This document shows, piece by piece, positions 1 to 21,000 of a stretch of DNA of 64,000 nucleotides; within the stretch, counting starts at the first letter, position 1, and each line of letters begins with the position of its first letter. Position numbers and translations under genes: made by a program. The notes under the pieces are model-generated. The model worked only from the letters and a program-made list of their open reading frames with translations, ran no database searches and had not been told where the DNA came from. The DNA comes from Candidatus Omnitrophota bacterium (GTDB lineage: Bacteria; Omnitrophota; Gorgyraeia; Ghiorseimicrobiales; Ghiorseimicrobiaceae): positions 12,223 to 76,222 of the forward strand of contig JAUXSB010000033.1 in assembly GCA_030681595.1 (NCBI GenBank). The letters run 5' to 3'.

Positions 1-3000
1 GGGCGGTTGTGCTTAAGTTTTTCTACCGTAGTAAGCTTGATCAAGCGCTGCTTATTCAGCGGACTTGCGCCGCTAGATACATACCCTAAAGAAGCTCTTA
101 ATAAAGGAAGATCTAAGTTGGCGTAGTAATCCCGGAGAAAATCCCTTACTCTATTCTCCGCATGGCTCATCTTTATACGCTGGATGAATAATTTAAGATA
201 ATACTCGTTTAATATATCATGGCGCGTTTCTTGGCTATCTACCTCATCCAAAACCAGCACTTCATAAATACGGGCGAATACCTCTTGAGCTATCCTGCTT
301 TCTGCGTCTTTAAAACCGCGGAGGCGCTCAAATAAAAGATTATAAGCTCCATTAAGCATAAATTCGGCAAAAGCATCTTCTTCTTTGGTAAAATTATAAA
401 GTTCGGAAAACTGCGCTAAGGCATTTATTTTTGCTTCTGACAACATACCTTCAGCGGCTGTGCCGTAAACCTTATATACCCCCGGAACACGGATAACCTT
501 GTTTATTTCCTCATTACTCATAAGAGACGTGCGTTCCGGCAGGCTATGGCTAAGAGAAGAATATAAATTATGATACATCCTGATATGGCTTAGGATATAG
601 GCATGCGTACCTATATTGTCGTAGTCTTTATCTATAAAGACTACCGGGCCGAAAGGAGTAATTATGTGCATGGCCCGCGGATTAAGCGGCGTTAATTTAT
701 ACCGCTCTACGATTTCTTCAAATTCTTGGCTTGTGCTGACCTTAACAAAAGATTCATTCCTTAGCATCGTGGTAATCCGGCTATAACAGGCAGCACCGTT
801 TGTGCCAAAGTTATCCCACTCGAGGAAATGCGGGCTTTCATCCCTGGAGTTTATAGCGCCGACTCCGCCGCTGCCTGCCCAAAGAATACCCATATTAGAA
901 TTAGAATACATCTCATCGGCGTGGGTTTGCGCCCGGGGAAACTCTTCGGAAATCCTTAAAAACAGCTCGTTAATAATTTTATTCTGCCCAGGAACTAACT
1001 CACTATCTCTGTAGGGATAAATCAATTTAAAGAAAATCTTTAAATCCGTGATATTGTTTTTATTTTTTGCCAAATACTCATTTATCGGCCAGCGCAAAAG
1101 TGCCTTGTGGGAAAAATGTCCCAGAGCTATAAATTGCTTTCTGCGGCTTTTCCAGCTGGCCGCAAAACCGGTGCAAACAGCTAAATCAGGCGTTAAAATC
1201 AGCTCGTTATCATCTACCTCCATTATCAAAAACGGGTCTGCCCCGCCCCAGGAAAGGATATAGGTTTTTACTCCACCATAGGCAGTAACTTTTATCATCT
1301 CATTTACTAGCGTTGGATAATTAAAATTTCCCTTTAGCGCAGTTACTTGCGATAAAAATGAACGTGTAAAAAATAATTCAGCCTTTCTCTTTAGAAAAAC
1401 AAAATCTTTTTCTGTCAAATCGCCTGAATTTAACTGGATATGCTTCTTAAGCCCGAAGTATGAGCCGTTTATTCTATATATGTTATTTTCGGAACTTTTT
1501 TTATCGCTTGATTTAAACGGCGAAGAAGACGCTAAAGACCCGTTAGCCTCCGGGATGGCGGATACTTCTTTCTCAACTAATTTTATTACTTTACTCAATA
1601 GAACCTTCCAGCCCTGCAAAGAATCCGCGCTTTCTAACTGGTCATCTTCTATATACAAAACATCATAAGCATTTAATAATTCTCTTAATACTGCTTTACG
1701 CCGATCTATTTCTTTGATTAAATTAGGGGGATTACTATTTTTCTCTTTTATGCTGTCCAAGCGTCTATATTCATCAAATATCTCGCTGCCAATTTTGCCA
1801 ACTTCTTCTTTAAGCGCGGCCATGCTTTTACTGGAATCTTTTTTATTTTCAGCAATAGCTTTTATTTCCAGTGTTTTCTTCTGAAGGCCGATCAGCCATC
1901 TGTCAAAATCGCCGATTTTAGCAAATTGTAATTTTCTAGCCTCTTCCCAGAGAAGTTTCAACCTAAAATCTTCCTCCTGCTTCTTTGCTTCTCGATGAAG
2001 TTTTGATTCAAATTCAACCTGTTCTCTATTTTTTATTACCCTTATGCTTATGCGCGGCATTTTTAATCCGCCCAATACGGCCATAAGTTCTTCCGCAGAG
2101 CTGCTATTTATATTGAAACTCTTAAGGATACCGGCTAAATGCTTAAGATTATTGTTAAAATTCGCGATTAAACGATGGTCAATTGTGATATTATTTAAAA
2201 AGATGTCCTCAAAATTCCGGCGATGTGAAACAAAATAATCTTTAATAATGGACACCGTAGATTCTGTTTTACGCAGGCGCTCATCAATATCTTTCATATA
2301 CCCTGCCAGAGAATACGTATATTCTCCTGTCTTCTTTACATCCATATACTTATAATCGGCGCTCATTATTGAAAAAAGCGAAAGCAGATTATAGGCTCTT
2401 TTTGCGGAAAGGTTACCGCCTTTGGCCAGTTTATATACTATCTTTGCCATAGCCATCTTCGATAGTTCGCTTAGGCTAAGAATAGCCATCAGATAATTTC
2501 TCTGCGAATAAACGCTCAATAAATTTAATTTTTCATATCGTCTTCCTATGGTATTCTCATCTTCTAAATAACATTCGCCTCCGGCTATCCTTAGCAACGT
2601 TTCATTTGTTACAGCGGGAGCCGCAAAGAACGACCTTATATCGGCCAATACCCTTTCCACTGTAACCGGCTTTATGCCTAAAATTTTGGCAATAGAGCGT
2701 ATGCTTTCACCATTATTAAGAAGCCTTAAAATCTCTATCCTTCTGCCGTATAGCTCATTCTGTTTTATGCGTAATTTTAGCCGGTATAAATCTGCGTCGG
2801 CATCAAGGAAACCTTCCTCTATGGCCTTCTTAACAATCGCAAGCGTCGACTTATTTGGGAATACCCTATCGTCCTTATCTAAATTAACCTCGAGATTCCT
2901 GGCTATCTGCCAAAAACTTTCCCTTACATTGCTTTCATCTCTTTGAGTTATAAAGGCAATCTCTTCATAATCTAAGCCGTCTTTAATAAGGCTGAGTACC

Positions 3001-6000
3001 CTATATTGCATATCGGTAAGAATAGGCCGCTGAGGCTTAAATTTTATTTTCTTATCCCACCAGATTTTATCCTCTAATCTAATGGCAAGCTCGCGACGCG
3101 CTGCTTCATCCATCCTTTGGCCTGATTTACGTTTAGGCATGCCGGTTTCTTGCAACGCCCAAGGAATAACATAATTACTTGCCCAATCCCTATGCGAGGT
3201 TAATTCATCGTCAATCTTATAAAGCGCCCACCCCAGTATGTATAACTCAAGCGCCTCAAGTTTTTCTTCGCCGATTTCTTTTCTGGTAAATACAATGAGT
3301 AAATCCTCTAAGCTTGTTTTTAATTTAATGTATTGTTTATTAACGGAAACTTTTACAACATTTACCAGTCTTTGAGTGGTTAGATGATTAACTCCGCCGG
3401 CTCTTTTAATCCCAAGCTTATCTTCTGTTTTCATAAAATAATCATAGATATGCTGCCAGGAATTCTGCGTCTGCGGCATCTTGCGCAGTTTTACAATATC
3501 ATGCAGGTCTTTGCCGCTAGCCAAATAATTAAGTATTTCCTGCTCAAGCGGAGTAAACGGGTTTACCATAAAATTTAACCCCGCCTCATTGGCTAACTGT
3601 AATAATTTTGCATTTACTTTTTCCTTGGGTATATATTTCCTGCTAACGCCTACTTTTCTGCGGAGAAATCTAAGCTCTTTTCTGTAGTCACTACTGGTTA
3701 TATTTAGCGCGCGAATAATCTCTTTTGCTTCTTTTCTTTCTCCTGCCTTAAGGCGCAATATTTCTTTCTGCAACGGGCTGAGCTCTAGCTTATTAGCAGA
3801 ATTACTCATTGTCGCCGCGTCTTCTTTTATAGGGCTGCTTCCAAATGACAAAGGATAATCTCCTTGCTTCTGCCAGCGCCTGCGCATCATTATCTCAAAT
3901 TCTCTGGCAGGTATGCGCCCGGCTGAACGCGCTACGATTATCATTTCCGTTTCTCTTGCTTTAGCGATCCGTCCTAACCTCTTCTCTATTATTCTCTTAA
4001 CAATTACTCCTTTTTTTATCAGAACATAATGGCGCACCTGGAAATCGTTATTCCTATAGGCATATTTTTTATTTATACTGCCTTTTCTAAACAGCCAATC
4101 TTCCAACAATTTCATCGTATCGAGCGAAACATCCAACTCTAATTCTTTAATTCCTTTTAAATTAATGAGTCTATTTACCAAGCTTTCAAATAACGCTAGG
4201 CTCACCTCATTTTTATTTTTCTCTTCCGTATATAAAGGACCGGCCTTTGCCGCCCTTAGGGCTACCGACATTTCAATGCCTAGATAACCTTCGATACCAT
4301 GCCCGCCAAACGCCGCCAAAACAATTTTCGGAATATGTTTTTCAAAATACGCGTCTAACTCAAGGCTGCCTGCATTAAAAGGATAGCGGCGCTTGATAAG
4401 TACCATAAGGCTCCCTTTTATATCCTCTTTTTTATAGAGTTTTACAACTATCGGCGAGGCGGAAAGCCCATTTCTGTTGATAGCGTTTTCTATCCGCTGA
4501 ATAATCTCTCCTTGTGATAAAGATTTTAAAAATATCACTCGGTAATCCTTCACTCTAAATATATTCTTTAATAATATTCTGGATAATTCTCTTCTTGTCT
4601 TATCAGTTATTTTTTCTTCTTCAATACTCCTCAGTATATTTATAGCCAACCTATCCTCTAACGCCTCCAATACGCCTTGAGATGCCGCCTCTGGGATGTT
4701 CCCGCTGTCGCTATCAGCGGTGCATCCTATGCCTATGTGTATGTATGAACCTGGCCTAGCATGAAAATCAGTGCCTACGGCAACAATTAAATCGCGCCGA
4801 AAAGCAAAATCCCCCAACCACTTTATTTGCTTATAGGTATGGGCGGGATGATAAACTTCAATTCCGTCTAACGCGGCGTATTCTTTATACATAAGTTTTA
4901 CTGCTATTTTTTCCATCAAAGATAAATCTTCTAGTTTACCCGGATGCGCCCAAACAGATGCTCCGCCGATTGCTCTTATGATTTTAAGAGTGTCTATACT
5001 TACTAATGGCTTCTCGACTTCTTTCCTTGGAGTCCTTTTACGGCTTAGATTACGCCGCAATATACGATCAACCCTCACTAAAACCTTCCTTAACTCTTTA
5101 ACTTCTTTTAAAGTCAACCACATCCTTAGATCCCTGCTGCTCATAGGCATAAAATAGTAAAGCAGATGCAGCGGCTTAGTAGCGCCTTCAACCACAGGGC
5201 CTATAAACAACTCGACTCCCGGTAAAACCTTAATTTCATTATCCAAAATCTCAGCCGCCTTTATTGCTTCATACAGCCCTTCAATACTATTATGGTCGGT
5301 TATAGAAATAGCGGCTAATCCCTTCCTCCAGGCCTCATAAACAATCTTCGTCGGTGACCAATGGCCGTCAAAAGAGAATATGCTGTGTATCTGTAAATCT
5401 ACCCTGCCCTTTAATTCAGCTGTCCTTGCCTCAAGTAAACCTTGTTCTTTTGCTGCTTTAAGCGCCGCTAACCTGCGCTCCTGTGCTTGGGGCGCGGTAG
5501 ATTTATCGTCAAGAATAGAGAGAACATCGTTTTGCTCATCCTTTATCGGTGAATTAGAAGAAGCCTTAATTATCCCCGGCCAATCCGCAAAAACTTCAAG
5601 AATTTTAACCTTATGGTGTTTTGCTGTGTCTCGTAATGAGCGTAATTTCCTATCCTTATTAAAATCCAGCTCCCATATTCCGCCGCCGATATACCTAAAA
5701 CCAGAAAGAAGCCTCTGGTAAACTTTGTGCTCATCACACTTAACATAAATTATAACTTTTTCAACGCCGTCTATCTTACCTGCATAAATAGCGGCTAAAT
5801 TCACCAGCAGCGAACCATACCCTCGCTTGCGGTATCCACGCCATATTTTTATAGGCCTATCTCCTTTTGAAGCCATAACCGGATGCCTATACATACCTCT
5901 GTAATTGTACGATGGCATAAAAGCTAAATACTTACGCGTATATCTACTGAGGCCGGAATTCCTCTCTTTTTCTACCCAGACAAACTTAACGCTATTATTT

Positions 6001-9000
6001 AAGCTTCCTACAAGATATTCATCATTATTTTCCAAAAGATAAATATTAAAATACCTTTCCTTCCCCACTTTCTTAAACCGCACGACCGATAAATTACCTG
6101 ACTTATCTCTAAGCGCTATCACTGCCTCTTCCCCATTTTTATTTATCCTATCTATAGATATATTTAACTTATCCATTCGATATCTTTTTAGTGGTGAATC
6201 GGCGTTTTGTTCCTCTTCATCTATATCTTCCGGGTTACCGTTACCATCTAACTTATCCATATAATACCCTACTAATGTACCCACCTCTTTACTATCATGA
6301 AGCATTAGATTAGTTATTATAAAATCGTCGAGCCTATCTTTATCGAGCTCAATGCCGCGGATATGATTAAATAATGCTGCTGCCTCTTTCCAATCGGAAT
6401 CTTTACGCGCCAGGCGCAACATATCATAATATTCACTTAAAGTTTTATTTTGCGGAATCTCGGTATCGCCCAAACTTAAAGCCAGTAACCCGGAAAGCAC
6501 CATCCTTAACCCATCTCGTAAATACCGCTCATCTTCCTGCCTTGAAATAGCTCTATAATCTACCGGCTCGCCGCCAAGATCATCTCGGTTGGCTTCTTCT
6601 ATCTCGATAGTTATCGGTTCTTGCTCCAAATTCAATTCAAGAACCTTTTCTCTAATGCCTGGTATCTCGGCATCAATCTCTATGGCCTTTTCAAAATTTT
6701 TAAGCGCAGCGGCATGGTCGTCTTTTTGCAAACTTTCTTTACCCAGCTGTACATAACGAAACATACTCAGGGCTTTTTTCTTTTCCTCGCTTAAATTCCG
6801 CTCAAAATTTCTCTCTACAAACCCTAAGGCTTTCAATTTATCATAAACACTCTTATCTTCTTTCAACCCGAGGAAAAAGCCTAATTGTCCAAATGTTAGA
6901 ATATTACGATATCTTTTTATAAAACTTAACTCCCCCTTTTTCCTTAATACCGATTCTTTAGATTTTCCCAACTCAAATGCTAATGTAAGCGACTCTTCAT
7001 CCATTCTCTTAATTAGTTCAGCCTCCTCCTCATAAATCCATTGATGGAGCTCAAGCGTCTCGTTAATCAATCTTCTTATATTCCTGCGCTTCATACTGTA
7101 TTCGTCTTTATTATACCCATATAATTCATACAATGATTCTAAGCCATGGTCAAAATAGACTCTGGATATATCCTCATAGAGCTTAAATAAATCAAGCAAC
7201 GCCTCTTCTGGTTTCTTAAAGTCATCGGCTAGTTTGGATAAATTCCCTTCAATTATTCCCCTCTGACAAATATTCCAAGACTCTTTATACTGCTCTGTAT
7301 CCCAACGTTTATATTCAAACCAGCTTAACCGCCTTTTAACGGCGCTTTTGTTCCATCCGGATGAAAATTTTTTCTTAAGCGCGCTGGCCAATTCATCATT
7401 TGTTAATTCTAAAAAGTTATCCCGGATAAAGACTAACGGATTTAATATTTTTTTTACTGTATTCTCGGGCCTTCTTAAAATCTCGGATAATTCCCTTATA
7501 TTCTTTACGGTAGGCTTTGAACCAAAAGGCAAGCTAGCTTTTATCCAGTGAATAAGCAGTTTTTCCCGCCAAGACCTTTTGTCTTCATGTTCCTTGATAG
7601 GTGACACGCCGGCGCCCAGAGGCTGTTTCATCGGCGAGGCGGCAGGGATATCGAAAATACGCGCCCTGAATAAAGTGCCGCTATTTTCCGCTACAAAGAC
7701 AATGAGCTGGTCAGAATTATCAAAAATAAAAGATAATCCCTCTCCCGCCCCTCCTAGAATTCCGTCTACAGGCAATAAGCTACCGCTAATAGGAAAAGGG
7801 AGGACATCATCTCTGAACTGCGAATTAACTATTGTATTAAAATGCGCAATCCCCCGCCCTTTATCTGCGGCATTAATTTCAACTACCTGTAATCCCTTTA
7901 TATTGATGAGCCTTGTTATCAATATCCCCCATTCTGTATGCATCCAGATATTTCTAGCTAATTCGGAAAAAATATTGCAGGCTTTAAGAGCCGCTTCTTT
8001 ATTAATAAATCTCTGTTTGATAAAAGAAGGCGAATTAAAAATATAGTTTTTGCCTTTACTAGAGTCGAGAAGCACTGGGCCACAGGTAAATAAATCAGAG
8101 GTAAGGGGGTCATTTTTCTGCCCTAACTGGTCATCAATTATAAGGTTCTCAACAATAGAAAATTCTTTCGTTGTATCTTTAACTAATCTGTTAAATTTAT
8201 CTCTGGTTGTAATTCCTAACAAATTCTGCCAAATTTCGAATATTTTCAGGTTGAATTTATCTTTGAATATTGTCCAAGTAGTAATATAATCCGCTATTTT
8301 GTAAGCAGTTATGAAATTCATCGGCGAAGCGGTAAAGCCAGGCTCCTTGAAACCAAATCTATAGATTCTCCCTACTTTAACCCCAAAAGAAGACGGCGAA
8401 GGAACGTCTTGCGATAATTTTGTGGCCGCGCCTGCAATAGTAAGTGCCCGCTCGAGCGTAGTTATTGCTAATCCTAAGTTCTTAGAAATAGTTTTTCCGG
8501 CAGCTATGTTATAATCAACATCCGCGCCGACATCCGCAAAGTAAATTGTGCCACCCTGGGGGTTCTTTATATTAACGATGGTTTCAACTACCTTATGATA
8601 CTGAGAAGTGGTGTTAGGGGATCTTTCTTTGGAATTTACCACGCTTAACGCAACGACGTGATCAAACTTTCCTTCAGTATCGGCTATCCCATAAATCTTT
8701 TCTTTTACCGCGTCGCTAATCATATCTACTTCTATATAGGTTATCCTGCCTCCGGAAAACCCGATTAAATCAATAAGCTCATCTGCCGCTTTTTTTATCT
8801 CTGCCAAATAATCTTTGTTTATATCAACCGCAAAGACGTCTAACCCTTTTAAGGCCGCATATATTATAAAATTACCTTGCCTTCCGCCAAAACCGGGGCC
8901 GATTTCGATAAGTTTTTCTCCCTTTCTAAGATTTAAAAGCCCAAAAACTTCTCTGTATCGAAGATTTAACTCTGCCGGGGTTATTTCTGCGCCTTCGGTT

Positions 9001-12000
9001 ATTCTTCTTAAATTCGCATAAAGTTTTCTTGTAAAAGGCGGGACATTCTCATCGTTAATATCAAAAAATATTAAGGATTCCTGCTTTTTAATTTCGTTTT
9101 CTAATAGTTTAAGGATATATGCATCATCATTTATGAATTTATCCGCCTGCGCCTTATTTAGAATTTTTTCAATTTGTTCTACAACATGCTTTAGCTTATT
9201 AACATTGGCTAAAATTATTGTTAATATATTTTCACGTGAAACATAATAGCCGGACAAATCTCCTTTTTTAATCTTTATTGCCCGGAGGCTATCTTCAAAG
9301 GCGCCCATATAACGAGGTAATCTATCTCTGATTAAATTTTTTATATTCTCATTGGTAATTCTGCCGTCAAATTCGACTATAGGTGAGGCGGCGGGTTCTC
9401 TTTTTCCTTCAACCTCATGTGCACTGCGGGAGTGCACACGGTTTATGCCTTCTGAATTCACCGGCGAAGCGGCGAAATGCTTTTCTTCGCTCGGAATAAA
9501 TAGCATAGAGTAGCCGCTATCCTGCTTAAAAATAAGCACTGCGGCAGAACCAGAAACAAGGACCCACCAGCCACGGAAGGAATCTTGTCCTGTATTAATT
9601 GCTCTCTGCCGCAGTGAAATATCCGAATTTGAAAGCGTTTTCTTATTTCCTAAAATAAAAATGAAGGGATAAATAACTTCTGCCGCGCTGATAAACGAGG
9701 CGGAAGAAGGAAGGATAAAGCTATAACTTGTAACTAATTTTTGCGGCGGGCTGTGCTCGGATAAAGAAAACCATCCAATCAGTTGATATATTGCCCCGGC
9801 GCCGGGAAATCCCCCACCAGCCACGGAGAGGTAGACTTCCCTAAAGAACGAAGCGCCGGAGACAAACGTATTTTTTAATGGAGAAGAATTACCTGTTTTA
9901 TCCCCCAAAAGCCTATTCTTATACTCATTTTCAAAGCCGGAATAATCATCATCGCAAGAACAATCTTCTCCGGCATCGAGGTCTTCTTCTGACAAGATGT
10001 CATCATATACATTAGTTTTAAATAACGGCTTAACAGCCTTCTTTTTTTCTACGCCGTTAATCTGCTTAAAGATTTGCTCCCTATACTCTTTTTTTAACTG
10101 GCATCCGACAAGATAAAACTTTATAATCTCATCTCGCTTTTTTTCTTTCAGAAACCTAATAATCTTTTCTTGTTGTTCTGCGGTTAAGATCTTTGAAACA
10201 GCTAATTCAAATACAGAGTACTTAGGTTCATATCTTTTCTTTAAATGTGCCTTAAATTTTATTAATCCGTTCTCAAGGGCAATCTGATACTGCGTAAACC
10301 TGTAAAGCCCGAACTGATATATAAGTTTATCCCTGCCAAAAATTATATTATCTTTATTTAACCCTAATCTATATTTTAGAATTTCGCGCTCTGTTTCATT
10401 TAAAGCATCTAAACTATCAAGGCCCCTGGCTAACTTGCCCTTAATTACGATAAACTCTTGGGCGCATACCCGGATAAAACCATCTATAACGTTATCAATG
10501 ATGCGCGGCGTAAGATTAAAAAACTTTTTCTTCTCTAATGCGGCAATCAGCTTCTCATGCCTATAGCCGTTTCTTATCCCTTCCTCAATAAACCTTAAAC
10601 GCAAAAGTTGCTCGTTGCGCTTAGCTATGCCTTCCATGTCATCTTGCCTAACGCTCCGGGAAAAAATAGGCAGCCTTTCTATATACAACTTCATCAATCT
10701 GTCTAGCTCAATGGCAGGAATGACCCCATAGATAAGCACATTTGTAATTACCTTTTTCTCAGCAATAGATATTTCCCTTATATCGCGAACCTGCTTCTCA
10801 TTAGAACGCTCCTCAATATAAGCCTTTAACTTATTATGGGCGTTTAAGGTTGGATTAACTTTTAAAATCCTAAGCAGGCCTTTTTCTATTCTGCGTATCC
10901 TATCACGCAACTCATGCTTTAGAGGGATTGAACGCGGCATTTTACTAAAAAACCTTGCTAAGTCATTTCTGACTAATTCTATATCCTCGCCAGATACGGT
11001 ATTTTCTTTAATATATAACTCTAACAAGATATTTACCTCCTGGTAATCTAAGCCCAAAAGGTTAACCAGTACGTCTTTTATGCTAGAGGCAAAATAATCA
11101 GAGTCTATCTTTATTTTTCCTTCGAATAAATCATTAAGTAAATAATAGTATTCTTCATAATCATACGACGCAAGCAAAATGGTTGGTATTTCTATAGAAC
11201 AGATATTATTCTTTAGGCCCCAGGCAATGCGTTTTAACGCTTCTTCAGCCGCATCTCTTCTGCCGATAATATCGTATCTCTCTGGGTGTTTTATGCCTAA
11301 TCCCTGCGGCCCTAATAAGGCATACAGCACCTCTTTATGGCTAGAGCGATGGTGCCCTATGCTGACAATCCGTAGTAAAATATGCTCAATACTCATTGTT
11401 AAATCATCCGCATTTATTTCGTAATGTTTAAAATAGTTTAAAATACTCAACTTAAACCAGAAGATAAACTGTTCAATATAATTATCAAGGTTGTCCAATG
11501 ATTTTCTGCGCTTTAAGAATTTAAGGGTGCGGGATAATTCATGTTTTATGTATTTTCTACCTGTATGGACAGCGATGGAATTATCTTTAATTATCGCTGA
11601 GCTGGAAGAGCTATGTTTGATATCAAAATCCCTGCCTTCCCAGCCGGGTTTGGTGTACCAGTAGAAGGTGAAACGTTCCGCCCAAGAAGGCAGATATGCC
11701 CTAAAGGCGCCTGCTTCATCACTCCATTCCAAGCGGACTCTGCCAAGATTATGCCAATCGCCATCTTCGCTGACTTTGGCAAATTGCACAAAACCAGGGC
11801 CATTAACTTGCACTTCCACCTGCTCAGTATCCGGATTAATCTCAATCGAATTAGCTTCGTATTCGGGAAAGGCCCAAGCCTTAGTCTTCTCTTGCGTCTT
11901 TATATTTCTGAAGAAATTAATATTTGCGCCAAAATCTACACCTGCCATCTGACTAATTTCTTCGCTGGCTTCATAGAGATTTAAAACTTGGCGGCTGTTT

Positions 12001-15000
12001 GCGCCGATTTCGATGTAAAGTTTATTCGCCAGTAAATTTTCTCCCCTTGTCAGGTGTAAACCGCGGATTTCACCGTTTGGCAAAACTTCCTCTATTAAAT
12101 AATCTTTCTCCGGGCTAATATGAAAAAATTCCGGTAGGGGTAGCCAGAAATTCTTTGTTTCCTGGTCGGTATTGTAAACCACTATACGCGGCGTAAGACT
12201 CCCTCCATCTTCTCTCGCCATATCAACATCAACCTGCACGCCATATGGCGCTTCACTTACTTCGCCTTTAACAATTTTCCATAAATAATCTTCGCGGCTG
12301 TTTGGCACCGGATAAAATGATTGGCCAAATTTACTACCGGCTATATTGCCATCTTCCTCTAATATCAAGACTTCCCTTCCATAAGGCGCAAGCACTAAAG
12401 AAACAAAACCTTCTCTAAATAATCCCTGCTTAATCTCGCGAGCTGAAATACCATGTTTCAAAACTTCACCACTTAAAATATTGCGCAGGCGATAGGCCTT
12501 ATTTTCATCTAAATCAGAGAAGAACGCGTCCGGCACGCCAAACCAGGCGTTCCTTGAGACACCGTATATATTCATATTCGCCACTACAAAAATCTTAGCC
12601 ATTTTATTCCCGGTTCTTGCGCTCCAGCCAATTGCCGCGATATCACCCAAGCGGTTATCAAATATTTCCGGCCACATCCCTCTTAACAAAGGAAGCTCAT
12701 GCTCTAATTTTTTCATAATTTCTAAAAATCTACTCTCTTTAAAGAGCGCGGGGATTCCGCCTTCCGTCTTTAAAATCATATCTACGTCTTCGGCCGATGC
12801 AAGCAGTTTATCGGGGACACTGGAAACTACTGCGCCGCGATGGCCTAAGGCATCGCGCATATCCACCCAGACAGATAAACCAAAATACGACATCGCAAAG
12901 AGGAAAATTAAATGGTTAAGGATAAACTCGTTTTGGTATTTATGGTAGTGCTTTCCAAAAAAACCAATAAAGATATCCCTGATTTTTGCCGAAATTGCCT
13001 GTTCGTCAAAATTGCTGGAGAAGCCATGATTGGCCGACCTTTTAGCTAAATAAAGCATAAACTCTAATACATTGCGGTACGTTAAGTCCCATTTGCCGGT
13101 GAGCCATTCCTCAACAAGATCATAAAGTTCTTTACGGTAGAGCCGGTCAAAGCCCACCTTTAGAGCGTAGTCGTAATGTGCCGGGTCTTCTTTTCCATAG
13201 ACTTCCGGAATGACTAATACTTCTATACCGATGAGTTTAGCCGCATCTTTTAACATAGAAATTACTTCCTGATAAAACTCGACGCGGCTATTGCTTAATT
13301 CGGGATATTCCTTAAGCAGAGAATTTAAATAGGTAATGATTTCTGATACCGAATCCATCTTTTCTGCGGTTTCAATCAATGAAGAAATAAAATTATTGTA
13401 ATCTTGCGGGGTCCTTAAGAAATCTTCCCTGCTTCTTAATTCCGGAGGCAAAAGATGGTACACGCAACTAAGCATTCCTTTTAAATGCGCGGTACTGGCA
13501 CGTTGTGCTAAGTCGCAGCGGAAAAACATCCGCGTATGGCCGGCATCTTTAAACCTTTTGGCCAGCCTTAGAAGATAATCTATGTAATATAGGCGCAATT
13601 CTTTGTTGAATAAATTGGGAAATGCCTGATCCGCATGCAAGACTTGCCCGATAAAGTTTGCCACCCAGACACGTTTATAACAATATCCATTATCATCAAA
13701 GTAACGCACGATAAAACCGCTATAATACTGCGGGTAAGTAAAGAGCCACTGGTCAATGAAGTCATTTAGTTCTTCATCGGTTAAGGAAACGCCTTTATCT
13801 CTTGCCTTTGTAAGTAGCCCATTAAGGAAAACATCACAAGAAACATTTTCCACATTTTCGCCGTTTTTGGCCCGGTTAAAGATGGCTTCAAGCCACTTAA
13901 CCTCTTCTTCTCTGACTTCTTTATGGAAGAATTTATCATAACCAAGCTCTAACACTGCTTCCGGAGCCATCCACGGGACAAAATCCCATACAATGGCAAT
14001 ACCTTTTTGCGCGGTTAATCTCAATAATTCGTCAAGGTCAGCATCATCGCCAACCACAGGATCAATTTCTACTTTCATGCTACTTTCTTCGACTCTACGA
14101 TAAAGTACCGAAAAGTTATTGCCGTAACGCGTATATAACTTCATCCCCTTACCGCGGCCATAATTAATAGTATAATGTTGTTTAATAACATAATCGTTAC
14201 CGGCATTAAGGTATATCTCGGCGCGGCCTCTTCTTATTTTAAAATATTTATTCTCCGGTCCCGTAATACCGCCTCTATGCAATTCCTTGCCTAAATCTCC
14301 TGACTCAAGCATGCCAAAAAGATAAATCACATTTCCGACTATATCGCCATCTCTAATAGCGCTAATAAGCTTTTTTAAACCATCCTTACTTTCAAACTGG
14401 CCTTTCCCGGCTTGTGCGCCGAAATCTTTTACATCCACCAAAAGCCCGAAGTCCGGCTTATCCGCGCGCCAGTACCAATTGCCATATATATCGTTTAGGG
14501 TGAAAATAAAATTCTTTAATTCCTCACTAAGGCGCGGATAATCTCGCAACTTTGCGATTAATTCGCCTATTTTTTCAAAAACAATATCATATAAACCGAT
14601 ACTGTCACTATATCTTTGCATCAAGTCCAGTAATAAAATTATTACTTCCTCATCAATTTTAGCTGTCTTCCTTAGGTCATTTAATTCTTTGTGAATGTTG
14701 AATTGGCTTATCGACTCTTCCATTTCTCTTAATGGCCGCAAGGATTCCAAAGCTTCCTCTATTCTCCTGCGCTCGCTATTGAGCCACCGGTCAGGCCTGA
14801 TATGCTCAATAAGCTTTTCAATCATCTCAAAGTTATTCTCAATAACTGATAATGCCGGTGCGTCTTTTACTAAAGACATTGCTTCGTTAAATAGCTCCGT
14901 AATACGAGGGTGTTCTTTCCTTGCCAATAGGCGCTGTTCCCTGCCGTCGTTAAGCTCAATATAGCGGCTTTGTTTTAACTCACGTCCGGATACCGGATAA

Positions 15001-18000
15001 TGGAAAGTTAATCCGGAAACTAACTCTTTCATACAATAAACTTCGTCATCTTCAATCCAGTTGATTAATCCTTCAGGAAATATAACTGTTCCTTCTGTGC
15101 GGCCGCCGTATTTACTCTTTGCGACAATCACCGGCCCCTCATCGGAAACATCAATATATACGATTAAGTTATCTGAAGACTCAATCTTCTTTTGGATATA
15201 TAGTTCCTGGACACCCACCACTCTTACCGAAAGGCCATCCTCTTTTAAGTTACGGCCTGAATATTCTCCATAAATTGCGCCTTTATCTTTGTCAATTATA
15301 ACGTAGGCCGCGTTATCATCAATTCCACCAGCCATATTCTCAAGCAGGAAAATTTTATCCTCTACCGGCTTCTCGCCATGATTTTCCAATATCAAATGCA
15401 AGCCCGCGATATTTTCCTTAAATGTAACGCTAAATTTCGCTTCATCTGAAATCGGCGAAGAAACCTCTTCGGCTAACCTATGCAGCTCCTCCTCAAACTT
15501 CTCTTTTGAGTAAGGCGGATGGATATTTTCTGCTTGTAAAATATGGCGAAGCGGCTCAAAAAATATAGCCATGGCGTAATTACCGAATTCCGCCCTGAAC
15601 CCGGGGAAATTCAATAAATCCTGGTTGTAATCCTTAAGCATTCTCCGCCATAACTCATTTGCCGCTTTTTCTATTTCATCGTAATTATCGGCATTCTTAA
15701 AATATCCCTTGATAAAAGGAAGGTACGGATTAACTCCTTTTTCTTGCGTATAAATATATTTTACTGCACGCAGCACCATTAACTCATGAATGCCCAAGAT
15801 TGCGCTTTCAATGCCAAAAAGCTGAGCAAGAAAAACCTGTTTTTCGCTTACCTCAGATTTTCTTATCACTGAGTCAAAATCCAATAAAACTAAATCCTGC
15901 GTTTCCTCATCAAGCTGATAATTGCCAGCATGGCAGGCAAGGCGTAAGAATCCCGCGTCATGAAAACGGCGTAATGCCTGTCCCAAGCTATAAAATTTAG
16001 GTTGTAAGAAATCTATTGCCTCATTATTATTGAGCCGATGCGAACGCCTGTCTTTTCCTAAAAGATGGTAAAAATAATCGGAGCAACCGTTAAATTTAAT
16101 CTTTTGCCAACCATTAATTCTTATAAACTCCGTATCAAAAAGATCGGCGAATCTTCTGTCTTGGCTGTCTCTTACTGCCAGCACAACAAACCCTACATCT
16201 TTATCTGCTAATTTATCCTCGTATTTACCCCATGCCATAGGAATATTCGCTGGGACACCCCTTAACATGGCTTCGCTTGCAATATCGTATTCCCTTTTTG
16301 CCCTTTCGAATAATAATGCTCCTTTAAGCCTTGATTGAGACTTGACCCGCGTAATTTTTCCTGCTTCATCAGCAGATAAATGATATGTCCTATCAACATA
16401 TGTTTCGGCTAACGGCATACTTACGCCTTTTCCAGAAAAGCTACCTATGCCTTTTATCTTTATACATTTTATTTCAAATGCCCTGCCAATATACACTATC
16501 TTCAACGGCTCTGAGAGATTAATATAAGCGCTTCTGCCAAGTGATTTAAACCTGGGTAAAACATTCCAGCTGGCTGTATTTTCTATTTGATTTCTTAAAT
16601 CTCCCGACAGAGCGATATCGCTGTTATAACTAATATATTCAATTTTGAATTGGTTATCGATAAAACAGCGCTGCATCAAAACGAGAATATTGGACTGGCC
16701 TATCCCGCGAATACCCCTAATTTCTTCCCAAGAACTAAATCTTTGGTTTGGTTTTTGGGAACGTGCTATTATTAATTGCTTTATTGCCCCCTTGGTTAAT
16801 AGGCCCAATCCTTTGAGTTCTGTTTCCGTTGCGCTATTTAAATCTAACTTATTCAGTGGTGAAGCACTTATACCTAAGAACGAATCTGTATCTGCAAAAG
16901 GTACAAATTTAATCTCAAAACCCCATTCATTAACAATATCTAAGAAATCACTTATATTTTCTGTTTCCAGCAATGCCTCTAACTCTGGAGGCAGTTGCTG
17001 GCCAAACACGGAAATCTCTTTATTTAACGCAAAAAATTCTTTGATCATCTCCCGCATTTTTTCACTGCCACGATAAACAATATGAGTTATTCCCTTGATT
17101 GTTATAATCTTATGTTCGACTAAGGCATTCGTTAGGTCGTATATACCTGCTATCAACACCATATCTGTCGGCCCCGGCAAGTTGCATTTCCAATTTTCTC
17201 CAATAACAGGATGGGTATGGCCCAAATCTTCAATAACTGCATGGGCTTTTTCGGCTATATTTCCCTTAAAATCGTTAAATACTGCTAAGTCCTCCCCTAA
17301 GGGCATAATTTTCTCTCCAGACAGAACATATCGTGCTAACCCTTGAGCCACCCTGCCTTCCTGCACTGTCCTGCCTTTTCTAAAATACCAGATGTCGCGC
17401 GCTTTAAGTTTACCAAAAACTACTTCTGCGTCTTTACCTTTATCGGCAATCATCCGATAAAAACTTTCTGATTTATGTACCGAAGACGGCATATCTAAAA
17501 CTCTAATTTGCTCACAAGGCTTTAAATTCTCTATTAAATCGGATAAGTCGGAAAGTGCTCCGAATCTAATAGTTATTGTTCGGGGAATATACGTTGCTAT
17601 TTTCTCAATGGTATATCTGATAATTTCAATCGGGTCGCTGCCTTTTATTAAAATATCAAGCCCCATGCCGGGGACATTTTTCTGATAAGGGCTTAAGACG
17701 GCCATTCCCCCATGTTTTAAAGGCCTAAATTCCTCTGACTTCGCGAAGAAGCTTCTAATATTCTGCCTTAAGCTTTCTCTGTCTGTTACAAATAAGTTAA
17801 CATTAGCCAGCTTATTAAGCTGATTAGTAAGTTCCTGCCTAGCCACCTCAAATTCTTCATCTGAAACCATAATGCCAAATATGCCTTTAGAACCCTGCCT
17901 TAACAGAGCAATCAACTCATCAATCTGCTGTTGTAGATTTTTTTCGAGCGGGGAGGCGGATTCACGGGAAGAATTAGCTTTTAAATATTTAACCAGCGCG

Positions 18001-21000
18001 GTAGCTTTTTCTGCCTTATCAGTAGACGGCCTACCCAATGCCGCATCCAATAAATCATCAAGTGTGGCATCTATGGGCATGCGCGCGCGCCAGTTGGGAT
18101 GCGTTGAACCCGGCGCGGGGTCATTAACCATACCTTCCTTACCCTGCATAAGGATATCGGATAAAGAAAGAACGGCTATCCTTGCCGGAGACTGATAAAC
18201 CTTAAGTAATATGTCGCGAAGAATTATTTCAACTGCCGAGCCTTTCGCCGTAGAATCATTATAAAGCCAGCTTAAAACCGCTTCGCGCTTATCCGGCTCC
18301 AATTCCTGCCACCACATTAAAAGCGTCCGCGAATCATGCAGGCCGAATGTGGCATAGGCATTTTCTTTATGATTAGGGAAGAAATAAGGATTAGCCGGAT
18401 TCCAAGGGGTAGCCCCAAAAACTCCGGGCAGATAATTCATTACCCCTAATTCTTCGAGAATCGGCGGCACAAAATCCGGTACTGCGCCTAATGCCTCGGT
18501 AATCATCGCGGCATTATTTTCTTTGGCTGTTGCAAGGAGAACTCTTAGCGTTTCCTTGCCCGGAGAAAGCTTAAAGAATCCTGCCCTTAAGCCGTCCGCG
18601 GGCTTGGGTGATTTTTGCGGGTCATCCGGAAAAAGGTACTTCATCATCTTATGCATATGGAATATCTTAAAGTGCTCCTGCAGCTCAGTAGATAAATCGG
18701 AAACCGCGATAAAATCCCAAACAGGTTGGCCTTTGAATACAGCCTTCTCAACCACAAAAGGAATCCTAAACCAACTATTCGGCTCTTTCTCGCTTTGGGC
18801 TTCTCTGGCAATCAATATCATATTATCCGGCCTTAAATTTCCTTCTTCATCAAATATATTGGTGCGCACATCTGCTAATCCGCGATAATTCTTAAGAACT
18901 AAAATCATCGCTGTATAAACTTTTTCTGCCAACTCAAGCCGCCTGTCAGGATAAACCATTCCTTCTACTATCGCCGCTTCTACCATATCCCAAAGGTTTA
19001 ACTTCTCTAAAGTCATTTCATCATCAACATCTTCTGTGAATAAAAACGCGCGGAAAAACCCTAGGGCATGGTCTAACCTTCTATAACTGACTTTATCTAA
19101 CTGGTATCCAAAACGCGCCTGCCAGAAACGAATAGTTTTTATATATTCCCAAAGATACGGGAAGAATTGCCAGTATTGGCCGTTGTCGCTAAAGGCATCG
19201 GGCGGTACCCCTTGCGAGAAACGACGCTTAAAATCAGGAGCACGTAATCCGAATACCTCTGGTGTAATCCAAAGGTCAGCGCCTTCGACGGCAAAAGGCA
19301 CGTCGTCCATAATATCTACGCCTTTATCTTTTCCGCATTTGATTGCCTCGCTCCATTGAGAATCGAGAATCCACTGGAGGAATATTTGGTAGGAAATTTC
19401 TTCTTGGTGTTCTTTAAGTGTGGCTTCTAATGCCTCTTTCTTTCTTAGCCGTAAATCCATCGGCCACCTGCGCCAATCCCAGCCATTGGGAATTTCAGAA
19501 CCGTATTTCTGCTTAAGAATTAGATAAAGTATGTGGTCAAAAATCCATTCTTTATTCTTACGCGCGTATTCACCCATCGACTGCTTAAGCGCGCTATTTT
19601 CCGAATATTTCCTAAACTCTTGCCAAACCATACGCAGTGCCAGATATTTAATCTCTCTGGCAAGGCTATAATTAACTAACTCCTCTTTACGCGCGTATTC
19701 TATTTTTTCTCGGATTAACTCAAGATAACGCTCTGCCTCTTTAGAGGGGATTAATTTTAACAATTTTTCAATGCTGATATAAAGCGGCTCTTTAAGCTTT
19801 GTGCTTGCCACTGAATACGGTGAATCGTTATAACTTGATATAATCAGCGGCAGCACCTGCACGATTCTCTGCCCCCAAGCCTTGGCAAGCTCAATTGCGG
19901 TAAATAGCGAACCCATATCGCCTATGCCTAAATCATTTTTGCTTCGTAAATAGGATAACGGGCCAAAGAAGCCGTCGATTTTCTTATTCAGCGGCGAGGT
20001 GGAGGTTTGGATTTTTTCTCCGGCGGGGCCAGAGGAAAAAATTAAGATATCGCCAAGGGCAATATCAAGCACAAAAATATTATTTTGGAAAATTGCGACA
20101 TTCATCGGCCTTTGTAAAATTCCTTCTCCAACCGTTCCTATTAATTTTCCTTCTGAATTGAATTTTACAACATGGCTAATCCCTTCAATGCAAGTATATA
20201 TATTCTTTTGTTTATCCGGCTCCATATCTAAAATAGCGCCCTGTGCCTTAATAACCAGCCTGCCTTCATCATCACCCTGCTTATGATACGAAAAAACCTC
20301 ACCCGAAGCATAACCCGCATAAATACCGCCTTCAATATCGGCAGTTACGGATACGGCTACTCCCTGCATTATATTTATAGCACTTCTAACTATACTGCTG
20401 TCGTTATCGTAAATATTTACTTTATTACCCTTATCATCCAAGATATAAATGAAATCATGGTTATCTACATAAATATCGCTTAATGAATCCGCCCCAGCGC
20501 CAAACATAGACAGGAATTCGCCTGTATTCCTAAAGAAAACTAACCATCCATTGCTTGCCGCTACCAAGATATCGGTAAACGGTTTTTTCGTTTCAAGATA
20601 TTTATAGATTAAAGACTTACTTAAAACACCTATTCCTTCTATCTCGGATAGCCCAAGGTTTCTTATTCCCGATTCAAGAAATTGCGCGCTGACTTCCTGC
20701 TTAACCTGCCTGCCGGTATTAATATCAAAGATAATTAATCCTTGAGCGCCATCCAAAACATAAACCTCCCCTTTATATACGGCCATTGCCGCGGGTTTAA
20801 TTATCTGCCTTCTTCCGTTTTGCTCACCAAGAATCCCTCTAAATTCAAAATTATTCCAAATAATAGGCAACTGATTATTATCCTCCGCTGGAGAAGAGAC
20901 AGGCTTATCTTTATTTTGCGCCGCAGGTAAAGAAGAAATTTGAATTTGCTCATAGAATATATAGTCCTTAAGCGTTAACGGCGTAAAGTATTCCTCGTGC

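Follow-up and report, generated by a model that had tools for sequence, protein, structure and literature searches.

A hairpin element with an invariant loop in the giant genes of Candidatus Omnitrophota

Two hairpins in the 64,000-nucleotide stretch of Candidatus Omnitrophota DNA analysed here (the window) carry the same loop on different stems, which raises the question of what such an element is and how it comes to lie within a coding sequence. Giant genes of Omnitrophota reach more than 100,000 codons and are the largest ORFs known; the papers describing them state their transcription, translation, processing and evolution as an open question, and are explicitly undecided on whether the giant transcripts are processed. 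A first-pass annotation of the window, made from its letters alone, had read a conserved loop on stems that vary yet remain complementary as the sign of a functional hairpin, in structured RNA or single-stranded DNA. The pairing statistics below support this reading, and far more strongly with 70 copies than with the annotation's six.

Hairpins with a common core in a giant reading frame

Frame 2 of the minus strand contains no stop codon over 63,998 nt, as against 700-2200 in the remaining frames. Since the window is a single minus-strand stop-free ORF, the functional strand of the core is the minus (sense) strand. The annotation was right to place the hairpins within a giant mRNA, but it had drawn them on the plus strand, and the minus-strand fold is the more stable in 5/5 cases (Table 1). 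Pfam domains in the giant frame include hexokinase, GH77, methyltransferases, HD, HATPase_c, SIR2_2, TPR, PHP and HTH. An NRPS module, a reading cued by 'LPRYM' near the site, was rejected on the Pfam results.

The core, UCCGUGGCUGGUGG on the sense strand, appears on the plus strand as the 14-mer CCACCAGCCACGGA. Five exact copies occur in the window, at 9564, 9814, 34213, 48991 and 61580, all on the plus strand, compared with 0.01 expected by chance, and none of 100 shuffles reached five or more. No variants with one or two mismatches were found in the window, and a search with model R1 likewise found cores either intact or absent. A sixth, split copy lies at 48931-49089. Each core sits at the tip of a nested hairpin, on one strand throughout, and all five hairpins are more stable than dinucleotide shuffles (sense z-scores -2.3 to -6.0).

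Table 1. Features of the window, with sense/antisense folding energies, model R1 scores and z-scores where available
Feature	Positions	Strand	Stems and sequence	Core and its reading	Energy (kcal/mol)	Model R1; z
Stop-free reading frame, giant multi-enzyme ORF	1..64000	minus	21,332 codons, open at both ends; sense strand bears all elements			
Hairpin 1, class-2-like	9537..9616	minus	outer CACUGCGGCAGA/UCUGCCGCAGUG, inner AGGACAAG/CCUUGU	9564-9577, F-R-G-W-W	-34.3/-29.5	42.1 bits, E 1.5e-9; -4.05
Second conserved motif	9627..9661	minus	UUUUUAUUUU-N10-GAAAACGCUUUC(AAAU), about 10 nt 5' of hairpin 1			
Hairpin 2, class-3-like	9794..9861	minus	outer CUCCGGCGCU/GGCGCCGGGG, inner GGGAAGUCU/GGAUUUCCC including G.U	9814-9827, S-V-A-G-G	-30.8/-19.3	34.5 bits, E 2.6e-7
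Second window copy of the motif	28120..28150	minus	UUUUUAUUUU...GAAAGCGCUUCC, no core hairpin after it			
Class-1 element	34188..34268	minus	outer UGUCCCGUUAGAGAG/CUCUCUAACGGGAUA, inner GAUUGUAUU/GGUACAAUC	34213-34226	-36.6/-29.5	60 bits; -6.0
Host element A, 3' half	48931..48960	minus	GCUGGCGGGAUACAAUCGCUCUCUAAGGGG			
Class-1 element B	48961..49044	minus	84-nt insert (28 codons) in apical loop of host A	48991-49004	-37.2/-36.2	
Host element A, 5' half	49045..49089	minus	ends ..UUACCUUCCGUG			
Possible decayed or variant relative	59377..59467	minus	UAGAGAG-UAUUGUAUAUC / GGAUAUACAAU-GCGCUCUA, like the element with core at 34213	none (54-nt loop)		missed
Class-1 element	61553..61631	minus	outer GCCCCGUUAGAGA/UCUCUAACGGGGC, inner AUACGU/GCGUAU	61580-61593, L-P-W-L-V	-38.5/-29.9	56.8 bits; -5.2

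In plus-strand letters, hairpin 1 has 12-nt arms, CACTGCGGCAGA/TCTGCCGCAGTG, that are 100% complementary around the inner stem, exactly as had been described. For hairpin 2 the description holds in its outer part, where CCGGCGC/GCGCCGG (9797-9856) enclose the inner stem GGGAAATC/GACTTCCC, but that inner stem contains one plus-strand A.C mismatch, at a position where the minus strand pairs as G.U. Hairpin 2 also has a single additional base 5' of the core (ACCUCUCC). Three further structures were considered and set aside: an older shell around hairpin 1, suggested by arm-like repeats at 9421-9432 and 9679-9691, gained no support from folding, and the weak model hits at 44071-44107 and 51620-51656, candidate core-less scaffolds, are ordinary chance hairpins. 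A search for homologues of the 1,200 residues spanning hairpins 1 and 2, wanted for an empty-site comparison, found none.

Distribution, base pairing and coding constraint

A search of public genomes and metagenomes, as the first-pass annotation had proposed, recovered 70 unique copies at 63 loci, mostly from Candidatus Omnitrophota. Of the 70, 63 are enclosed by sense frames that stay open and measure 1.4 kb or more, about seven lie outside long ORFs, and some stand at or just past the 3' end of a giant ORF (loci L041, L121 and L124). In the genome scan, 44 of the 45 copies judged genuine belong to ORFs without a stop over the entire 8-kb locus, 100% of them in the sense orientation. An independent metagenome scan found 35 of 36 cores in a hairpin and about 30 within ORFs that stay open for as much as 13.9 kb, sense only. 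The annotation had held that its reading would fail if the core were equally common outside hairpins; with these metagenome cores and 5/5 window cores in hairpins, it stands on this point. Hairpins 1 and 2 are copies of an element family nearly confined to Omnitrophota giant genes.

No Rfam family accounts for the element. None of 4227 Rfam models matched anywhere in the window at the gathering threshold and nothing appeared at E<=10, the best sub-threshold scores being 18-19 bits against thresholds of 41-105, and a known RNA family was rejected on these Rfam results. The literature searched gave no description of it, so that it is apparently undescribed. IMG/VR contigs contained no core matches, and viral carriage was rejected. 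Judged by eye only, the core is no more complementary to the 16S 530 loop, SRP RNA or the anti-SD than chance would allow.

The element is a two-tier sense-strand hairpin of 58-96 nt. A GC-rich outer stem of 8-20 bp, in about three sequence classes, surrounds a covarying inner stem of 5-16 bp with an A/U-rich 5' bulge, and the invariant tip module, UA-CCU.U.CC-GUGGCU-GG.U.GGG, forms a mini-stem and hexaloop. The stems do not vary freely, as had been supposed: besides the limited number of outer classes, inner positions beside the core are partly constrained. The loop of about 20 nt is invariant across genomes of 32-59% GC, but both scans demanded exact core matches, so part of this invariance is there by construction, and a model search over 356 kb found some diverged cores (the L084 cluster, L027 and L115).

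Could the core be conserved for the peptide it encodes, or the repeats be spurious? Loci L084 and L141 give this idea some footing, since about seven diverged cores stand there in tandem in one phase (..SVAG(E/G)G..). Copies inside ORFs, however, occupy codon phases 0, 1 and 2 in 28, 16 and 19 cases and are read as three unrelated peptides (LPSVAGG, TFRGWWG and YLPWLVG), and the cores of hairpins 1 and 2, 250 nt apart, already lie in different frames. This three-phase usage refutes the peptide-motif explanation. The chance expectation given above and the recurrence of the architecture at 63 independent loci in two collections count against coincidence and assembly artefact, and we regard the whole group of explanations as scarcely tenable.

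Selection for pairing is evident in the stems. Inner-stem cells are paired in 89.8% of cases, compared with 46-59% in slid registers; double-sided changes number 130 versus 43 in shuffles, a count that 0 of 500 shuffles reach; and G.U exceeds A.C by 168:6 (p 3e-42). Strong covariation together with this excess of G.U means that it is the sense strand that folds. At the orthologous L012/L110 element every stem change keeps pairing, and orthologous copies overall show 15 one-sided and six compensatory changes versus 12 broken ones, seven of which come from one doubtful pair. Between L044 and L083 the element is about 95% identical, as against 53-69% in the flanks.

The same arms obey a coding constraint. 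When in frame, an arm triplet is TAG, TAA or TGA in 0/13 cases versus 9/14 (Fisher p 6e-4), and the 3' arm covaries; the arms thus shift to dodge in-frame stops without losing pairing. Elements keep 2.0 open sense frames on average, versus 1.3 in controls. The copies are stop-free and occupy every codon phase, so that ribosomes translate them into linkers of arbitrary peptide sequence. The element is under joint selection: its arms must pair, and its frame, in any phase, must stay open. Stop codons do not explain its orientation: none of 72 copies is antisense, although inversion would leave 63 of the 72 with one or more open frames, and antisense stops are thereby ruled out as the cause of the bias.

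Insertion into the apical loop and neighbouring signals

At no fewer than eight loci a class-1 copy has been inserted precisely at the CGUG of a resident copy's apical hexaloop, with measured inserts of 84, 87, 84 and 84 nt, all multiples of three. In the window, element B interrupts host A, with CGUG on each side. Its junction, CCGTG/CCCCGTT...ACGGGGCGTG/GCTGG (slashes mark the boundaries of the insert), is identical at L015, L097, L101, L119, L120 (twice) and L152. The CGTG at both junctions can be read either as a 4-nt duplication or as a target CGTG plus an element-terminal CGTG. The nested hosts differ in their inner stems, so the insertions are independent events. Once split, the host core decays: in host A, GGUGG has become GGCGG and GGGG has become GGGA, and the flanks of the element at 34188-34268 (..GGCGUG on one side, ..GCCGGUGGGC on the other) look like another decayed split core. 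Host A and that element are about 93% identical, in unrelated flanks, and L013 carries two near-identical copies 2.6 kb apart.

No empty site, meaning a corresponding locus that lacks the element, turned up among all fetched loci, orthologous sites all being filled; insertion is therefore an inference that rests only on nested copies and on copies whose flanks are unrelated. Nested copies of classes 2 and 3 were not found, so that the insertion signature is limited to class 1, and no transposase is evident among the neighbours of intergenic and 3'-end copies. Site-specific self-insertion supports reading the element as mobile or as a recognition site; all the functions that the annotation had listed, a protein-binding site, a transposase-recognised end and a regulatory or pausing RNA, are still possible.

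Breaks in homology near elements, seen in the comparisons L012/L110, L142/L145 and L044/L083, might suggest that the hairpins are Chi-like or site-specific signals exchanging giant-gene modules. On the sense strand, the G-rich one, the core does include GCTGGTGG, the Chi octamer of E. coli, and outside parsed elements this octamer occurs 26 times in sense versus five in antisense, with about eight expected. However, the sense excess may stem from decayed element remnants. Chi requires no hairpin, and its sequences are specific to lineages. In L012, L110 and L078 the break falls not within the hairpin but 17 nt past it, in the adjacent SSSP(V/I) linker, and its position in this SSSPV linker excludes the hairpin itself as the breakpoint. 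Exchange within the core also predicts non-complementary arm pairs, of which none was seen. We therefore consider a recombination signal very improbable.

The flanks bear on a further possibility, that the outer stem and a U-rich 3' flank form a translation-gated intrinsic terminator, which would stop transcription only if the first ribosome falls behind the polymerase and so abort unproductive synthesis of giant mRNA. The outer stems are GC-rich at the base, positions +1 to +6 contain 40-69% T against a background of 27%, the copies of L041, L121 and L124 lie at giant-ORF 3' ends or slightly downstream of them, and at L144 and L157 a GC stem plus UUUUUAUUUU follows the small embedded gene described below. 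The U-tract is nevertheless weak (the first 8 nt hold about 3.5 T), and because the upstream flank is as T-rich as the downstream one, the T-richness suggests target or linker composition instead; weak tract and symmetric flanks together speak against a canonical terminator. The 3'-terminal copies of L041 and L121 have no T-rich sequence after them, some 90% of copies are internal to ORFs and not at the 3' ends of transcription units, termination does not call for a loop of 20 invariant nt, and loop-specific self-insertion would go unexplained. An attenuator of this kind appears unlikely, though not beyond consideration.

A second conserved motif accompanies some of the hairpins. The copy 5' of hairpin 1 is 94% identical in nucleotide sequence to sequence in L010 and at two L013 sites, each directly 5' of a class-2 hairpin. 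The UUUUUAUUUU motif occurs in 21 copies, on the sense strand only and with a spacer of 10-14 nt, and in nine of the 21 a core hairpin follows 34-56 nt downstream. The GAAAGCGCUUUC motif may resemble boxA, but a boxA-like reading was not retained, the motif accompanying only a minority of hairpins.

As a separate observation, a conserved, SD-led gene of 75 aa lies out of frame within giant ORFs and adjoins hairpins. It forms about 60 clusters in public data and causes gene callers to truncate giant ORFs, and the order small SD-led gene, U-tract/palindrome motif, hairpin is recurrent. No remnant of the gene was found in the 64-kb window. Since a single small-ORF family occurs in a fixed relative frame, we argue for vertical descent and not cassette traffic.

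Relation to known systems and interpretation

Several known systems share part of this description. Rickettsia palindromic elements (RPEs; Ogata et al. 2000, via PMC10969869 and PMC3733652) are described as short palindromes in frame inside genes whose ORF stays intact. They add translated stretches of peptide to the protein, and they are non-autonomous elements for which a dedicated transposase is not known. The Omnitrophota element, too, is a hairpin-forming palindrome in frame within preserved ORFs. However, an RPE family encodes one conserved peptide in one frame and RPEs occupy many unrelated ordinary genes of one genus, whereas the Omnitrophota element uses three phases and lies in giant ORFs phylum-wide. 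It also differs in conserving a 20-nt apical loop on covarying stems, in being sense-only, in homing into its own loop, and in its tag (CGTG at class-1 junctions, CGTC in RPE-4 and RPE-6).

REP/REPIN elements, which are mobilised by RAYT (IS200/IS605-type Y1 HUH) transposases, resemble it as GC-rich hairpins presumed to work in single-stranded form, whether DNA or RNA, with a conserved tetranucleotide beside the stem, long vertical persistence, occasional intragenic copies and REPs inserted inside other palindromes. Yet REPs measure 20-40 nt, bear GTAG/CGTC tags, have conserved arms and variable loops and are overwhelmingly extragenic, whereas the Omnitrophota element measures 58-96 nt, bears CGTG, has an invariant loop on arms varying in about three classes, and lies inside ORFs in 90% of copies. 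IS200/IS605-derived MITEs (PATE) insert strand-specifically, 3' of a fixed tetra- or pentanucleotide and with no target duplication. The Omnitrophota element is likewise strand-specific, while its junctions allow the two readings of CGTG given above. PATE has distinct left and right subterminal hairpins, in contrast to the one hairpin found here throughout.

Integron attC sites are likewise folded single-stranded hairpins with stems little conserved in primary sequence, keep one orientation per array and adjoin small SD-led ORFs of unknown function. At the base of their stem lie R''/L''-L'/R' boxes (GTTRRRY), with crossover there between the G and the TT. The class-2 and class-3 arms (GGYCGCTGCGG, GGCYCCGGCT) contain no GTTRRRY, and the Omnitrophota element is conserved and invaded at its apical loop and translated within one ORF. 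The antitermination signals of phages and rRNA (lambda nut boxA-boxB, HK022 put and EAR) are sense RNA hairpins with a specific loop that act in cis on the polymerase of long units. Some have a short linear box a few nt upstream, to be compared with the GAAAGCGCUUUC motif, which precedes some hairpins by about 10-55 nt. The Rfam comparison revealed no sequence or model similarity between these signals and our element. Antitermination signals of this kind lie in leaders and not within ORFs, are immobile, and number one or two per operon.

Our main proposal, to which we give about an even chance, is that the element is an in-frame palindrome, strand-specific and homing on itself, that recognition goes through the invariant loop, and that it may have been co-opted as an RNA signal of giant mRNAs. 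It would be a non-autonomous, self-homing mobile hairpin of the REP/RPE kind. As a mobile element it is unusual in the joint selection described above, in conserving its loop instead of its ends and in homing into that loop. The loop may be both recognition site and integration target of a conserved trans-acting enzyme, as yet unidentified, which would act on the single-stranded sense strand, whether lagging-strand template, non-template single-stranded DNA or RNA. Only copies that leave the giant frame open would survive. Resident copies were probably co-opted, by inference, as an RNA or single-stranded DNA signal in giant-gene expression; that pairing, and sometimes whole-element sequence, is conserved in place between species suggests that they are not neutral. 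Against mobility, no transposase or recombinase has been identified, in the absence of a genome-wide search; homing exchanges one intact core for another, which alone leaves the origin of new sites unexplained; and an invariant loop with structure-preserving orthologous evolution is more typical of host-functional RNA than of selfish DNA.

A host cis-acting RNA signal, which we regard as possible but less likely, would bind a conserved factor on the loop (the 75-aa protein, a NusG/antitermination-type factor or an endoribonuclease), and would secure processive transcription and translation or direct site-specific processing or the stabilisation of transcripts exceeding 100 kb, the copies spreading secondarily by duplication or homing. 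In its favour are the sense-only orientation that stop codons do not explain, the G.U bias, restriction of copies to giant ORFs or their 3' ends, pairing kept or compensated at orthologous sites that outlast their coding flanks, cores sharply intact or absent with split cores decaying, the recurrent gene-motif-hairpin module, and a literature that leaves processing open. In a more specific form, possible but on balance doubtful, the hairpin is the cis signal of a dedicated giant-gene expression system, with a factor on the loop, possibly the 75-aa protein, and the UUUUUAUUUU...GAAAGCGCUUUC motif. If this were true, the complex would make processive transcription and translation possible or keep a check on them, or else it would cleave mRNAs of more than 100 kb into defined units, and self-insertion would renew and spread the signal.

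Among recurrent features at the nucleic-acid level, this element is the first to be linked specifically to giant genes. It gives defined positions at which to seek RNA ends, ribosome pauses, protein binding and DNA rearrangement in metatranscriptomes and long-read data that already exist, and ACCTTCCGTGGCTGGTGG within a hairpin is a simple tag for giant-gene fragments in fragmented assemblies. The 75-aa gene and the second sense-strand motif, moreover, suggest that giant genes contain internal genetic signals overlooked by their current annotation.

The hairpin family and its sense strand

The minus strand of the window is a single reading frame without a stop codon in 63,998 nt, against 700-2,200 stops in each other frame, and the paired hairpins listed in the table, which share a common 14-mer core, therefore lie within coding sequence. 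The first-pass annotation had described them on the strand that the stop-free frame identifies as antisense. Both hairpins are real: the first has perfect arms, and both fold more stably than dinucleotide shuffles. Pfam searches of the giant frame recover complete, high-scoring hexokinase (1e-59 and 1e-69) and GH77 4-alpha-glucanotransferase (1e-87) domains, fused to methyltransferases, several HD domains, HATPase_c, SIR2-like, TPR, PHP, GFO/IDH/MocA, a LuxR/sigma-70 r4 HTH and an M48 peptidase (weak). The ORF is of the 'multi-enzyme' giant-gene type described for Candidatus Omnitrophota; placing the window in that phylum rests on this gene type and the common element alone. Long unannotated stretches separate these ordinary cytoplasmic-type enzyme domains, and no Pfam domain is interrupted by the elements of the window. 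No homologues of the 1,200-aa segment around the paired hairpins were detectable among 5.8 billion proteins.

The core, CCACCAGCCACGGA (UCCGUGGCUGGUGG on the coding strand), occurs five times in the window, always on the plus strand and without near-matches, whereas 0.01 copies are expected and none of 100 shuffles reaches five; a model search likewise found perfect cores or none, with no intermediates. In each of the five copies the fold of the sense strand is more stable than that of the antisense strand. Since the two paired cores, 250 nt apart, fall in different codon phases (encoding FRGWW and SVAGG), it is the nucleic acid and not the peptide that is conserved. Elsewhere in the window, a coreless hairpin has stems like those of the 34213 element and may be a relative that has decayed or diverged into a variant.

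Coordinates of the hairpins and associated features (L-numbers denote loci fetched from public genomes or metagenomes; rc, reverse-complement coordinates)
Feature	Locus	Position	Strand	Remarks
Hairpin, first of pair	window	9537-9616	minus (sense)	perfect 12-nt arms; MFE -34.3 kcal/mol, z -4.05
Hairpin, second of pair	window	9794-9861	minus (sense)	MFE -30.8 kcal/mol, z -2.3
Octamer GCTGGTGG in core	window	9564-9571	plus; reads GCTGGTGG on minus	E. coli Chi octamer
Second motif	window	9627-9661	minus	inside the paired-hairpin region
Second motif	window	28120-28150	minus	
Class-1 element	window	34188-34268		
Host element A	window	48931-49089		split by nested insert
Nested class-1 insert	window	48961-49044		
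Coreless hairpin	window	59377-59467	minus	54-nt loop
SSSP(V/I) linker	L012	2880-2900		
SSSP(V/I) linker	L110			
SSSP(V/I) linker	L078	region 640-1100 (rc)		
Last hairpin of giant gene	L041	region 940-1110		
Last hairpin of giant gene	L121	region 7400-7600 (rc)		
Tandem cluster	L084 (identical to L141)	1480-2010		
Small gene	L083	2380-2605 (rc)	minus	
Small gene	L044, L126, L130, L144, L101, L143/L153, L014, L021, L072, L154-L159			
Second motif	L010, L013, L068, L072, L099, L126, L127, L130, L131, L143, L144			

Scanning one genome per species for the exact pattern gave more than 117 loci. High-GC matches are chance occurrences without a hairpin; the roughly 50 low- and mid-GC matches, from Omnitrophota MAGs and some MAGs labelled Planctomycetales (the labels are the depositors' own), all share one architecture. 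From the base inwards, it consists of an outer stem (8-20 bp), a 5' bulge rich in A/U, an inner stem (5-16 bp) and a UA bulge, and it ends in the invariant tip CCU.U.CC-GUGGCU-GG.U.GGG. In an independent scan of metagenomes, which added 35 loci, this hairpin surrounds 35 of 36 cores. The invariance of the core is partly ascertainment because the scans demanded exact matches, and the data come mostly from MAG or metagenome assemblies, where chimeras can arise from repeats. After deduplication we retained 70 strictly parsed elements of 58-96 nt from 63 loci, whose outer stems belong to roughly three sequence classes (GCCCCGUURSAAAG, GGYCGCUGCGG and GGCYCCGGCU).

In a gapless 50-sequence alignment, pairing holds in 89.8% of cells, compared with 46-59% in controls that shift the 3' partner by 1-3 columns, and double-sided changes number 130 versus 43 in shuffles (0 of 500). 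The stems contain 168 G.U pairs and only six A.C mismatches, and the sense strand is therefore under structural constraint. No Rfam model matches the element, the giant-gene papers on Omnitrophota make no mention of hairpins, palindromes or inverted repeats, and the core sequence was not found in the literature searched. The closest precedents are Rickettsia RPEs, which are also in-frame palindromes, and REPs/REPINs, GC-rich hairpins that carry a tag and sometimes lie within genes or inside palindromes. However, RPEs keep one frame and one peptide per family, while the present element uses all three phases, and REPs/REPINs are 20-40 nt long and mostly extragenic, with conserved arms and GTAG/CGTC tags. 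Because it lacks defining features of each, we class it as a variant of the coding or repetitive palindromic elements that belongs to neither group. L084 has about seven hairpins in tandem, spaced 70-93 nt apart, whose slightly diverged cores (e.g. TTTCCGTGGCTGGTGAGGGG) share one phase and so encode ..SVAG(E/G)G.. repeatedly; as in the two-copy cluster of the window, the element here takes the form of a local array.

Reading frame, orientation and constraint

Among genuine copies from genomes, 44 of 45 lie in frames open across the entire fetched locus, as do about 30 of 35 from metagenomes (up to 13.9 kb); over all sets, 63 of 70 occupy sense frames of 1.4 kb or more, and there is no antisense copy. 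A few copies depart from this pattern, being either intergenic or within some 100-200 nt of the 3' end of a long ORF, but these too are co-oriented with the genes. In two syntenic genomes (L041 and L121) the giant gene has its last hairpin at the very 3' end: the hairpin precedes the stop by about 200 nt in one genome and lies about 100 nt beyond it in the other, and both continue into the same set of PilZ-like, phosphorylase-like and sugar ABC transporter genes. Avoidance of stop codons does not account for the sense-only orientation, as 63 of 72 copies would still have an open frame after inversion.

The elements occupy codon phases 0, 1 and 2 in 28, 16 and 19 cases, giving three unrelated peptides, and the mean number of stop-free sense frames per element is 2.0 versus 1.3 in controls. 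In class-1 arms a variable triplet is TAG, TAA or TGA in 9 of 14 copies where it is out of frame, but TGG, TGC or CGG in 13 of 13 where it is in frame (p 6e-4), and the 3' arm covaries with it so that pairing is kept. Translation thus shapes the sequence of the element. That the hairpin is a translation-gated terminator is improbable: T-rich 3' flanks lend this weak support, but the T tract is weak and the flanks are symmetric. Across all parsed elements (-7 to -1 and +1 to +6), T makes up 58% of sense flanks at -1 and -2 and rises or falls between 40% and 69% over +1 to +6, where the background is 27%, which could reflect target-site preference, linker codon composition or a weak U-tract.

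Orthologous copies are kept between species. Every stem substitution between L012 and L110, whose flanks are 90% identical, preserves pairing, and eight orthologous pairs show 15 one-sided and 6 compensatory pairing-preserving changes versus 12 that disrupt pairing, 7 of them in a single doubtful pair. Certain elements greatly exceed their coding flanks in conservation (for example, about 95% versus 53-69% between L044 and L083), which means either host-level selection or recent replacement by homing. The main rival explanation, in which the hairpin is primarily an RNA signal that the host uses in giant mRNAs (for factor binding, processing or processivity), is possible, but we consider it less likely than not.

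Related giant genes have a mosaic make-up, with short SSSP(V/I) linkers between the modules, and interspecies homology breaks at these linkers, directly 3' of hairpin elements; the element adjoins such a linker in L012, L078 and L110. L044 has an extra 630-nt P-loop kinase-like module between small gene and hairpin relative to L083 and L126. These breaks near elements, together with GCTGGTGG inside the core, would suit a Chi-like or module-shuffling site, but the break that was resolved at nucleotide level lies in the neighbouring linker and not in the hairpin, and we regard this explanation as very improbable. The Chi octamer lies on the G-rich sense strand of the core; outside parsed elements, 526 kb of giant-gene loci contain it 26 times in sense and 5 times in antisense, where about 8 occurrences per strand would be expected, an excess that may be coincidence or decayed element remnants.

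An embedded small gene and a second motif

Giant ORFs of several loci, although not the window, contain a gene of 74-80 aa (e.g. MYELSDIQITRVSPVKHGILVCAKYSDWTHEYDLFINPDGSVIGKTSSGSWLELSQ...). It is invariably offset by -1 from the giant frame and has an ATG, a stop of its own and a strong Shine-Dalgarno sequence. Over its length the giant frame is free of stops in all 10 loci, against 2-10 stops in the third frame. Substitutions number 33-34 at its own third codon positions versus 4-8 at second positions; purifying selection acts on the small gene's own frame. A core hairpin usually follows some 60-160 nt downstream, and in seven loci the core is 64-160 nt beyond the stop; of six contigs retrieved via the small protein alone, three carry the full core hairpin 50-300 nt downstream and five an open overlapping giant frame. 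The protein family comprises about 60 clusters, with standalone proteins of 71-105 aa, and belongs to no Pfam family; its AlphaFold model is confident (pLDDT 89; five strands and a helix), with only weak fold matches.

The small gene makes gene callers truncate giant ORFs, which are probably systematically under-called at the overlap. In L153 (contig Ga0172375_10000431, 1-15658) the giant frame is open for the whole 15.7 kb, through the embedded gene, and the public call, a 9,554-aa gene, starts only at 13187. L154 (contig Ga0496406_007594, 1-4282), a close relative of the L083 region with a 96% identical small protein and the hairpin, has a surrounding frame open for only about 1.1 kb and ordinary gene calls (a 448-aa phosphorylase fragment and a 261-aa HD_4 protein), reflecting either a broken-up, non-giant arrangement or assembly frameshift errors.

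A second motif, UUUUUAUUUU-N10-14-GAAAGCGCUUUC, also written TTTTTATTTT-N10-14-GAAAGCGCTTTC (a palindrome), has 21 copies, always on the sense strand of giant ORFs. It often directly follows the small-gene stop, between small gene and hairpin, and lies 34-56 nt upstream of the core hairpin in 9 of 21 cases.

Nested copies and the proposed nature of the element

Within host element A, a complete 84-nt class-1 element occupies the hexaloop of another element, with the junction ...UUCCGUG / CCCCGUU...AACGGGG CGUG / GCUGG.... The identical junction recurs in L015, L097, L101, L119 and L120 (twice) and, slightly varied, in L152, and L053 is apparently triply nested. The host elements differ in their inner stems, indicating independent insertion events; four inserts measure 84, 87, 84 and 84 nt. 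Split host cores contain substitutions while intact cores are invariant, and the flanks of 'non-nested' class-1 copies resemble decayed core halves (CCGTG/../CGCGGTTAATAAC in L109, GTG/../CTTAGTTAATAAC in its relative L044). Host element A and the copy at 34188-34268 share about 93% identity but have unrelated flanks. Nested junctions, core-like flank halves and the likeness of host element A together indicate that class-1 elements are copied and inserted, and that their target is the CGUG of the apical loop. No empty site was found among the fetched loci, no transposase among neighbours of intergenic or 3'-end copies, and no viral carrier of the core in IMG/VR contigs.

As far as sequence comparison can establish, without expression or biochemical data, the element is a sense-strand hairpin with an invariant tip, under dual selection for pairing and an open frame, specific to giant genes, translated through and inserting site-specifically into itself. 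The explanation we prefer, inferred without biochemical data and held at about even odds, is a non-autonomous REP/RPE-like mobile hairpin whose loop would be used by a conserved enzyme. That enzyme would recognise the loop and cut or join there, acting on single-stranded sense DNA or RNA, and the copies resident in the giant genes would probably have been co-opted.
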